Positions 57,531-61,650 of a DNA stretch of 64,000 nucleotides are shown piece after piece. The DNA comes from a phage. Numbering within the stretch: position 1 is the first letter of the stretch; each line of letters begins with the position of its first letter. The notes beneath the pieces are model-generated. The model was given only the letters and a program-made list of their open reading frames with translations, was not told where the DNA came from and made no database searches. Both the position numbers and the translations under genes were made by a program. The DNA lies in the sequence record PZ452595.1, one strand, 5' to 3'.

Positions 57531-60500
57531 ATGGCTACTTTAAAACAAATACAATTTAAAAGAAGCAAAACTGCAGGAGCACGTCCTGCCGCTTCAGTAT
57601 TAGCCGAAGGTGAATTGGCTATAAACTTAAAAGACCGTGTACTTTTTACTAAAGATGACCAAGGAAATATTATTGATCTGGGTTTTGCTAAAGGCGGTAG
57701 TATTGACGGGAATGTTATTCATACAGGCAATTATAACCAAACTGGCGATTATACTTTAAATGGTGTCTTCACTCAGACTGGTAATTTTAATTTAACTGGT
57801 ATTGCTCGAGTAACTCGCGATATTATTGCCGCTGGGCAGATTATGACTGAAGGCGGAGAACTTATTACAAAAAGTTCAGGTACAGCGCATGTTCGTTTTT
57901 TCGATAACAATAGTCGCGAACGCGGAATCATTTATGCCCCGGCTAATGATGGTTTAACTACACAAGTACTTAATATCAGGGTTCAAGACTACGCCGCTGG
58001 TAGCGAAAGCACTTATGCATTTTCAGGCAGTGGACTATTTACTTCACCTGAAGTATCAGCATGGAAATCTATTTCGTCTCCACAAATTCTGACCGACAAA
58101 GTTATTACAAATGGGAAGAAGACGGGAGATTATGACATTTATTCTATGGCAGACAACGTTCCATTGTCTGAAAGCACTACTGCTATTAATCATCTCCGTG
58201 TTATGCGCAATGCTGTAGGCGCTGGTGTATTCCATGAAGTTAAAGATAATGATGGAATAACTTGGTATACTGGAGATGGCTTAGACACTTATCTTTGGTC
58301 GTTTACCTGGACCGGTGGATTGAAAGCAGGCCATTCTATTTCTGTTGGTACTCCTGGTGGCAATAAAGGATACTCTGAATTAGGGACTGCTTCAATTTCT
58401 CTTGGCGATAATGATACCGGGCTAAAATGGCATCAGGACGGATATTTCTATACAGTAAACAACGGAACAAGAACTTTCATCTATGGTCCAGGAGAAACGC
58501 AAAGCCTTAGAAAAATGGTTATGGCTTATTCTCCAGATGGGCTTCTTATGACAACGCCACCGACAGAAAACTATGCTTTGGCTACTGTTGTTACTTACCA
58601 TGATAATAACGCATACGGTGACGGTCAAACTCTTTTAGGATATTATCAAGGCGGTAACTATCATCATTATTTTCGCGGTAAGGGTACTACAAACATTAAT
58701 ACTCACGGCGGTTTGTTAGTTACTCCTGGTAATATTGACGTTATTGGTGGTTCTGTTAATATCGATGGTAGAAATAATGCTTCTACACTGATGTTTAGAG
58801 GTAACACAACTGGTAGTAGTTCAGTTGATAATATGACAATTTCCGTTTGGGGCAATACGTTTACTAATCCTAGTGTAGGTAATCGTAAAAACGTCATGGA
58901 AATTTCTGATGCAACTAGCTGGATGAGTTATATTCAAAGACTTACAACAGGTGAAGTAGAAATGAACGTTAACGGTTCATTTGAATCATCTGGTGTTACT
59001 GCTGGAAATAGAGGAGTTCACACAACGGGCGAAATTTCATCTGGGGCTGTGAATGCGCTTCGTATTTGGAACGCAGATTATGGAGCTATTTTTAGACGTT
59101 CAGAAGGTAGTCTTCATATTATTCCAACTGCTTATGGTGAAGGTAAACATGGTGATATCGGCCCACTTCGCCCGTTTAGTATGGCTTTAGATACCGGTAA
59201 AGTTACTATTCCAGATTTACAATCAAGTTACAATACGTTCGCAGCGAACGGCTATATTAAATTTGTTGGTCATGGAGCGGGTGCCGGCGGTTATGACATT
59301 CAATATGCTCAAGCGGCTCCTATTTTCCAGGAAATTGATGATGATGCTGTAAGCAAATATTATCCTATTGTTAAACAGAAGTTTTTAAATGGTAAAGCCG
59401 TTTGGTCTTTAGGTACTGAAATTAATTCGGGTACATTCGTTATTCATCATCTGAAAGAAGATGGATCACAGGGCCATACATCAAGATTTAATGCTGATGG
59501 TACAGTTAATTTCCCCGATAACGTTCAGGTCGGCGGCGGTGAAGCTACTATTGCTCGCAATGGTAATATTTTCTCAGATATTTGGAAATCGTTTACTTCT
59601 GCGGGAGACACTACAAATATTCGCGATGCGATAGCTACTCGTGTTGCCAAAGAAGGCGATACGATGACCGGTAGGTTGACTTTATCTGCTGGAAATGATG
59701 CCCTTGTTTTAACTGCGGGCGCTGGCGCTTCATCGCACATCCGTAGTGATGTAGGTGGTACAAATAATTGGTATATAGGCAAAGGCGGCGGCGACAATGG
59801 TCTAGGTTTTTACAGTTACATTACACAAGGCGGTGTATACATAACAAATAACGGCGAAATAGCGCTTTCTCCTCAAGGACAAGGAACATTTAATTTTAAT
59901 AGAGACCGCCTTCATATAAACGGTACACAATGGACTGCGCACCAGGGTGGTGGCTGGGGAAACCAATGGAATCAAGAAGCTCCGATATTTATAGATTTTG
60001 GTAATGTTGGTAATGATAGTTATTATCCTATTATTAAAGGAAAATCTGGTATTACTAATGAAGGATACATATCTGGCGTTGATTTTGGTATGCGACGCAT
60101 TACTAATAACTGGGCGCAAGGTATTATTCGTGTAGGTAACCAGGAAAATGGTTCTGATCCACAAGCTATCTATGAATTTCATCACAATGGAGTTCTGTAT
60201 GTTCCTAACATGGTTAAAACTGGAGCAAGATTATCAGCTGGCGGTGGTGACCCGGTGTGGCAAGGCGCATGCGTTGTTATTGGTGATAATGATACTGGAT
60301 TAGTTCATGGTGGTGATGGACGAATTAATATGGTTGCAAATGGAGTTCATATTGCTTCATGGTCTTCATCTTATCATTCTCATCCAGGCCTTTGGGATTC
60401 AAACGGAGCTTTGTGGACAGAAGTTGGCAAAGCAATTATTTCTCATGGTCATTTAGTTCAGGCGAATGACAGCTATTCAACGTTTGTCCGTGATGTTTAT

Positions 60501-60842
60501 GTCCGCTCTGATATTCGTGTTAAAAAAGACCTCGTTAAATTTGAAAATGCTTCTGAAAAGCTTTCTAAAATTAACGGTTACACTTATATGCAGAAACGTG
60601 GAACTGACGAAGAAGGTAATCAGAAATGGGAACCTAACGCCGGTTTAATTGCTCAAGAAGTTCAAGCTATTTTACCAGAATTAGTTGAAGGCGACCCGGA
60701 TGGTGAAGCTTTACTTCGTTTGAACTATAACGGTGTAATTGGTTTAAATACAGCTGCAATCAATGAGCATACTGCAGAAATTGCGGAACTTAAATCAGAA
60801 ATTGAAGAACTTAAAGCATTAGTTAAATCATTGTTAAAATAA
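57531..60842 (+). CDS. 37: Long tail fibre distal subunit gp37 with C-terminal intramolecular-chaperone-like domain
   Basis: 1103 aa; last 120 aa (SDIRVKKDL...YTYMQKRG...coiled-coil end) resemble auto-cleaving fibre chaperone domains. Confidence 0.9.
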
Positions 60843-60846
60843 TAAG

Positions 60847-60862
60847 AGGGGCTTCGGCCCCT
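60847..60862 (+). terminator. Hairpin after gene 37 (GGGGC-UUCG-GCCCC)
   Basis: Stem with UUCG tetraloop between gene 37 and the gene 38 SD. Confidence 0.5.
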
Positions 60863-60873
60863 TGGAGGTTTAT

Positions 60874-61650
60874 ATGGCAGTAACAGGACCGTGGGTAGGA
60901 TCGTCTGCAGTAGTTAATACAGGACAAAATTGGATGGGTGGTGCCGCGCAGAGATTGAGAATGGGAATTCCGTTTTGGATGAGTAATATGATAGGTCGAT
61001 CTGTTGAAATAATTCACACGCTTGGAGCAGACCATAACTTCAATGGTCAATGGTTCCGAGATAGATGTTTTGAGGCAGGTAGTGCACCTATAGTGTTTAA
61101 TATCACTGGAGATTTAGTATCATATTCTAAAGATGTTCCTTTATTCTTCATGTATGGAGATACACCCAATGAATATGTTCAGTTGAATATACACGGCGTA
61201 ACGATGTATGGTCGTGGCGGTAATGGCGGTAGCAATAGTCCTGGCTCAGCTGGAGGTCATTGTATTCAAAACGATATTGGTGGGAGACTAAGAATTAATA
61301 ATGGTGGAGCTATTGCAGGCGGCGGTGGCGGCGGTGGCGGCGGATATTATTCTCCTTTTTCACAAATGAGATTGACCTTTGGCGGCGGCGGTGGGCGTCC
61401 GTTTGGTGCACCTGGCGGATCTATTGATATGCAATCAGGAGCGACTGGCGGTACTATTTCTGCACCTGGCTCAGGATCCGTGAATGGTATCTATAATGGT
61501 GGAAACGGTGGTGAAGTAGGTTCCGCGGGAGGTAGATGCAATATTCGCGGTCAAGGATCTGAATATAATGGCGGCGATGCTGGTTATGCCGTCATAGGGT
61601 CCGCTCCAACGTGGATAAATGTTGGAGCAATATATGGTCCAAGAGTATAA
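60874..61650 (+). CDS. 38: T2-type tail fibre adhesin gp38 with glycine-rich motifs
   Basis: Track start is TTG at 60862; the ATG at 60874 with SD GGAGG gives 258 aa; poly-Gly islands ([37 protein letters not shown]) separated by variable segments. Confidence 0.85.

Follow-up and report, generated by a model that had tools for sequence, protein, structure and literature searches.

The closest solved relative of the fibre tip described here is that of Salmonella phage S16, in which gene 37, encoding the distal subunit of the long tail fibre, is followed by gene 38 (6F45; Dunne et al. 2018). According to the summary given in PMC7917993, S16 gp37 sheds its last 113 residues by autocleavage at the bond joining the two serines in DLNVS^SDRRIKK, which exposes the docking surface for gp38. 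In the crystal structure, as presented in PMC6851490, the base of the gp37 trimer has three symmetry-related pockets, which receive the tryptophan prongs of gp38. For T2 and T6, proteolytic processing of gp37 was reported to remove the C-terminus of the protein, after which gp38 caps the tip (Drexler, Riede and Henning 1986, J Mol Biol 191:267, as cited in PMC3157838). The C-terminal subtypes of gp37 pair with N-terminal subtypes of gp38, and T2-, T6- and K3-like types are distinguished (PMC3157838). In the fPS phages, a cut after the R of DVYIR^SDGRLKI has been predicted to open the docking site for gp38 (PMC7917993).

The chaperones of the S74 family are built around a central trimeric coiled coil (PMC4690869). 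In the K1F endosialidase, T5 pb1, the GA-1 and phi29 appendages and the eukaryotic MYRF, the domain forms trimers and acts as chaperone for the triple beta-helix ahead of it; cleavage in K1F, T5, GA-1 and MYRF is autocatalytic, occurs in heterologous hosts as well and is abolished by Ser-to-Ala or Lys-to-Ala exchanges (PMC4690869, PMC3742443). PMC3742443 describes the Ser-Lys dyad and how it depends on trimerisation. In T5, Ser1264 and Lys1269 act together with an Arg of the neighbouring chain (PMC4690869). The dyad is competent only once a residue of the neighbouring chain completes the oxyanion hole (PMC4690869, PMC3742443), and cleavage thus reports correct folding. Upstream of the cut, K1F and T5 also possess a helper Arg, the 'folding sensor', and an acidic residue (PMC4690869).

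We analysed a window of 64,000 nucleotides of phage DNA (PZ452595.1), whose backbone shares about 97% identity with phages AR1 and Sf21 in a DNA comparison, which places it in Tequatrovirus. The gp37-gp38 segment is more divergent, its highest identity to any record in the DNA comparison being 93.9%. The ORFs follow the order of a T-even long-tail-fibre operon, with lengths of 1289 (gp34-like), 371 (gp35), 218 (gp36), 1103 (gp37), 258 (gp38) and 218 aa (holin-like), and the nearest counterparts of gp37 in other phage records are annotated as 'long tail fiber protein distal subunit'. The peptide that a sequence-only reading of this DNA had quoted as the gp37 C-terminus is indeed found at the end of the 1103 aa ORF, which is closed by tandem TAA TAA stops. 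Two further ORFs that overlap this region, 60466-60648 on the + strand and 60823-61050 on the - strand, were discarded; both fall within or straddle well-supported genes, and nothing speaks for them as genes. The positions of all features are listed in the following table.

Table. Features of the gp37-gp38 region, in positions of the window
Feature	Position	Strand	Basis and remarks
Gene 37, long tail fibre distal subunit precursor	57531..60842	+	ORF list; stop codon included; 1103 aa, 118.4 kDa
Predicted mature gp37, residues 1-992, 106.2 kDa	57531..60506	+	Motif aligned with S16 DLNVS^SDRRIKK and fPS DVYIR^SDGRLKI
Predicted scissile bond R992-S993 (codons CGC TCT)	60504..60509	+	Homology with S16, T5 pb1 and K1F; start of 3GUD
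C-terminal intramolecular chaperone domain (Peptidase S74)	60507..60839	+	Residues S993-K1103; 111 aa, 12.3 kDa
Predicted catalytic Ser993	60507..60509	+	Invariant in 11-sequence alignment; aligns with PF13884 position 1
Predicted Lys998, general-base partner of the Ser-Lys dyad	60522..60524	+	Ser+5; invariant in 11-sequence alignment
Predicted long terminal alpha-helix, probable trimeric coiled coil	60726..60836	+	gp37 residues 1066-1102; AlphaFold2 monomer model
Intercistronic hairpin AGGGGC-TTCG-GCCCCT	60847..60862	+	Sequence and stem-loop scan; between gp37 stops and gp38 RBS
Gene 38, T2/S16-type tail-fibre adhesin	60874..61650	+	258 aa; PF05268 GP38 E 3.2e-71, PF21721 Gp38_N E 1.4e-21
gp38 N-terminal attachment domain	60874..60993	+	Residues 1-40; W7, W20, W35; PF21721 positions 1-40 of 40

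At its extreme C-terminus, over the last 111 of its 1103 residues, gp37 carries a domain for which the Pfam search returned a clear match to PF13884 (Peptidase_S74, 'chaperone of endosialidase'). The match extends over residues 993-1052 and over profile positions 1-57 of 58, begins exactly at S993 and scores 54.2 bits (E 1.8e-14) against a gathering cut-off of 22 bits. Among solved structures, the best match is chain A of 6F45, the distal subunit of the S16 long tail fiber (E 4.9e-38). The alignment with this chain spans the tip segment ahead of the serine and the entire C-terminal domain; the segment that precedes S993 is homologous to the trimeric beta-helix tip of 6F45. At the level of sequence comparison, these matches confirm that residues 993-1103 form a C-terminal intramolecular chaperone domain of the Peptidase S74 family, with a resemblance to chaperone domains far beyond chance. 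The sequence-only reading had named a lack of profile similarity to chaperone domains as grounds for refutation, and such similarity is plainly there. The chaperone-like domain proposed in that reading is thus borne out, while its extent needs correction: as the serine is residue 993, the domain comprises 111 residues and not the last 120. Of the interval 60460-60842 assigned to it there, the end is right, being the last base of the first TAA, and the start lies one base out of frame (60459 would be in frame) and 47 nt upstream of the codon for S993.

The domain is widespread among phages. A tblastn search of phage genomes with the 111 aa matched 1417 phage records. In 179 of these the identity reaches at least 95%, and in one, phage FL08, it is 100%. 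When the 127-aa tail was used in a word-indexed protein search, 10 proteins came back, mostly tail fragments of 170-183 aa that start at internal Met codons; their precomputed Pfam annotation already lists PF13884. We aligned 11 sequences, namely that of the window, T2 gp37, a T5-like fibre, the gp37 tails of Citrobacter phage Ci1 and Escherichia phage TH40 (both Straboviridae), fibres of Thermus, Synechococcus, Pseudomonas and Klebsiella phages as well as two proteins from metagenomes. The S, D and K of the motif S-D-x-x-x-K are invariant in all of them, and a G, a GxxAQ motif and a P are conserved further on. A profile built from the homologue alignment reaches the ICA domain of MyRF (7DC3, E 2.8e-14), the tail fibre 8JOV and the released neck appendage chaperone of phage GA-1 (3GUD), the chain of which begins with SDERHK. 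The K1F endoNF (3GW6) and T5 pb1 (4UW8) were not reached by this profile search of the PDB at E <= 0.01, so the kinship of the gp37 domain with these two is founded on Pfam family membership and on the literature.

The Ser and Lys of the dyad have clear counterparts in gp37. S993 aligns with the SD serine of S16 gp37 and with Ser1 of the chaperone of GA-1 (3GUD), and Lys998 corresponds to T5 Lys1269 (PMC4690869) and to MYRF K583 (PMC3742443). The motif around the predicted cut reads DVYVR^SDIRVKK. Its P1 residue varies among relatives, with R here and in T2, S in S16 and T in T5. Candidates for the Arg 'folding sensor' and the acidic residue are R987 and D988 at positions -6 and -5, an RD pair that is also conserved in S16 and Ci1.

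In a comparison with S16, the gene order, 37 then 38, the domain and its place are the same, the chaperone domains are 56% identical and share the S-D-x-x-x-K motif, the tip ahead of the cleavage site is homologous, and gp38 is homologous from residue 1 on, with the three Trp prongs conserved. The two systems differ in the reported S16 P1 residue (Ser in DLNVS^SD, Arg here in DVYVR^SD), in the reported length of the S16 domain (113 residues against 111), in the upstream shaft of gp37 and in the hypervariable loops of gp38, which is closer here to PP01 gp38 (9V85). T2 gp37 has the same motif (NVYIR^SDIRLK), but its chaperone domain, with 99 aa and about 34% identity, belongs to another subtype, in keeping with the known T2-, T6- and K3-like subtypes. 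The fPS phages have a Tequatrovirus gp37 with the near-identical motif given above, where cleavage after R is likewise a prediction (PMC7917993), but with another shaft and other receptors. T5 pb1 and the K1F endosialidase, the prototypes of Peptidase S74, resemble the arrangement proposed for gp37 in having a trimeric chaperone at the C-terminus, a Ser-Lys(+5) dyad, a cut that follows correct folding of the trimer and removal of the Ser; their domains are longer, however (133 residues in T5), and grip the receptor-binding domain with beta-hairpin 'tentacles' (PMC4690869). In both, the mature tip binds the receptor itself, whereas here a separate adhesin would cap the tip.

The gp37 of T4 occupies the same gene position and has a homologous N-terminal fibre part. 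It lacks the S74 domain, however, and its own C-terminal needle serves as the adhesin, and its folding depends on separate chaperones, gp38 and gp57A (PMC3157838, PMC6851490).

The assignment of the downstream gene as a gp38 adhesin, also made from the sequence alone, held up: its product matches PF05268 and PF21721 and is homologous to S16 gp38, and its W7, W20 and W35 correspond to all three S16 tryptophans. Among solved structures, the best agreement is with PP01 gp38 (9V85, E 1.1e-78), and S16 gp38 (6F45_D) is matched at E 7e-53. The ORF list places the start of gp38 at TTG 60862. The true start is almost certainly the ATG at 60874, because both the Pfam Gp38_N profile and S16 gp38 align from there and a good Shine-Dalgarno sequence is present. 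In the intercistronic space we noticed a hairpin with a UUCG tetraloop that ends one base before the GGAGG ribosome binding site of gp38. A terminator between genes 37 and 38 was considered and rejected; the hairpin has no T-run on the + strand, where the scan found no terminator-like site, such sites being confined to the - strand. The hairpin may instead stabilise the mRNA or modulate translation of gp38.

Taken together, the identity of the domain, the conservation of the catalytic residues, the homology of the gp37 tip and of gp38 to the S16 complex and the order of the genes are shown for this phage. We consider it very probable, by analogy with the characterised homologues, that the S74 chaperone trimerises, folds the tip and cleaves itself off at R992-S993, and that gp38 then caps mature gp37. 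In such a pathway, three gp37 chains would associate via the domain, with the terminal helices forming a trimeric coiled coil, and the domain would nucleate the folding of the triple beta-helical tip ahead of it and set its register. Only in a correctly folded trimer would Ser993 be set beside Lys998, with an oxyanion-stabilising residue supplied by the neighbouring chain. The R992-S993 bond would then be cut in each chain, and dissociation of the 12.3 kDa chaperone trimer would leave a mature gp37 of 992 residues ending in ...FVRDVYVR. The exposed flat tip of gp37 would finally be capped by one copy of gp38 by means of the three Trp of its N-terminal helical bundle. That cleavage takes place in this phage at all, the exact bond, the dependence on trimerisation and the release of the chaperone are steps we infer from the homologues.

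The bond that is cut deserves closer consideration. The sequence-only reading had proposed the S-D junction, and if the same domain cleaved itself at S993-D994, the serine would stay behind as the last residue of mature gp37. The phi29 appendage, and of the characterised cases it alone, has been modelled in this way, though 'with less convincing density' in the words of the same source, which also reports that the Ser departs with the chaperone in K1F and in T5, where the Thr1263-Ser1264 bond is cut (PMC4690869). In S16, the closest solved relative with 56% identity in the domain, the cut is reported to lie before the SD serine (PMC7917993). The GA-1 chaperone chain in 3GUD likewise starts with SD, and MYRF's C-terminal piece begins at S578 (PMC3742443). 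Since S16, T5, K1F, the GA-1 chain start and MYRF S578 all place the cut before the Ser, we expect it at R992-S993 in gp37 as well, with the Ser leaving together with the chaperone, and regard a cut one residue further on as unlikely.

It seems very unlikely that the domain is an inactive or uncleaved chaperone-like module that stays on the mature fibre while gp38 binds elsewhere. Ser993 and Lys998 are intact and invariant. Both the docking domain of gp38 and the gp37 tip have their homologues in the S16 complex, and there gp38 occupies the face that cleavage exposes. Moreover, the uncleaved T5 fibre is non-functional in competition assays (PMC4690869). Least probable of all, and hardly to be expected, is trimming of gp37 in trans by a separate phage or host protease with the S74-like domain as a mere folding aid. 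The title of the T2 paper, as cited in PMC3157838, speaks of 'proteolytic processing' and names no protease, which would leave room for such an enzyme, but cleavage is autocatalytic in every characterised member (K1F, T5, GA-1 and MYRF; PMC4690869, PMC3742443) and the dyad is conserved both here and in T2 gp37.

Self-cleavage at R992-S993 followed by capping could conceivably be extended by a role of the released chaperone trimer in handing the tip over to gp38. The trimer might fill the hydrophobic pockets until it is displaced by the tryptophans, or it might recruit gp38 transiently. We give this addition little credence; the only thing in its favour is the observation that the chaperone and gp38 work on the same gp37 face and are passed on jointly. 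If it were true, cleavage and adhesin loading would be mechanistically coupled, and this coupling would be reflected in the pairing of chaperone subtypes with gp38 N-termini.

An AlphaFold2 monomer model of the region has a beta-hairpin and a short helix, together with a long terminal helix. The model is poor (mean pLDDT 58, from a shallow alignment of seven sequences). Such low values fit both the shallow alignment and the fact that the domain is trimeric in its characterised relatives. The terminal helix corresponds to model residues 104-140, with a block pLDDT of about 89 over its C-terminal two-thirds and of 67-69 at its start. The top Foldseek match of this weak model in the PDB is the MyRF ICA domain (probability 1.0, E 2.7e-3, TM 0.47). 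We consider this match alone meaningful and dismissed the others (HIV Env and others) as noise.

Further upstream, gp37 is mosaic. Compared with gp37 of phage FL08, identity is 46% at residues 451-500 and 56-58% at 701-800, and it rises to 100% at 1001-1103. This pattern fits the published picture of a conserved module for the chaperone and gp38 attachment that is flanked by exchangeable segments. Residues 450-550 (58878-59180) also match PF21446 'Gp34_trimer' above its cut-off (E 1.1e-7), and this domain is therefore common to the proximal and distal half-fibres.

The C-terminal domain of gp37 is an established feature, already known from T2, T6 and S16, and it has been correctly re-identified here. 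It is not new, because the processing of T2 gp37, the structural explanation in S16 and the fPS prediction for an almost identical motif all came before, and it leaves current understanding unchanged. For annotation, it means that the mature distal fibre of this phage is best given as gp37(1-992) with gp38, and the last 111 residues of gp37 as a removable chaperone. For engineering, such as swaps of receptor-binding tips or expression of fibres for diagnostics, the chaperone has to stay on the construct and has to suit the N-terminal subtype of gp38.

Five of the proteins from the word-indexed search, NCBI entries of 170-183 aa named 'tail fiber domain-containing protein [Escherichia coli]', are gp37 C-terminal tails read from internal Met codons. 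Four of them come from contigs of about 166-167 kb, the whole set from contigs of about 60-167 kb, and gp37 was apparently not called at full length. These contigs look like T-even phage genomes that have been deposited as E. coli. In Synechococcus phage ACG-2014f (KJ019150.1, 214893-215327), a complete S74-like domain including the motif SDATRK is encoded in one frame. The large upstream CDS annotated as 'baseplate wedge initiator' ends in another frame at position 10 of this locus, and only the last 52 codons are annotated as a separate small CDS, which suggests a frameshift or a misannotation that detaches the chaperone domain from its fibre.
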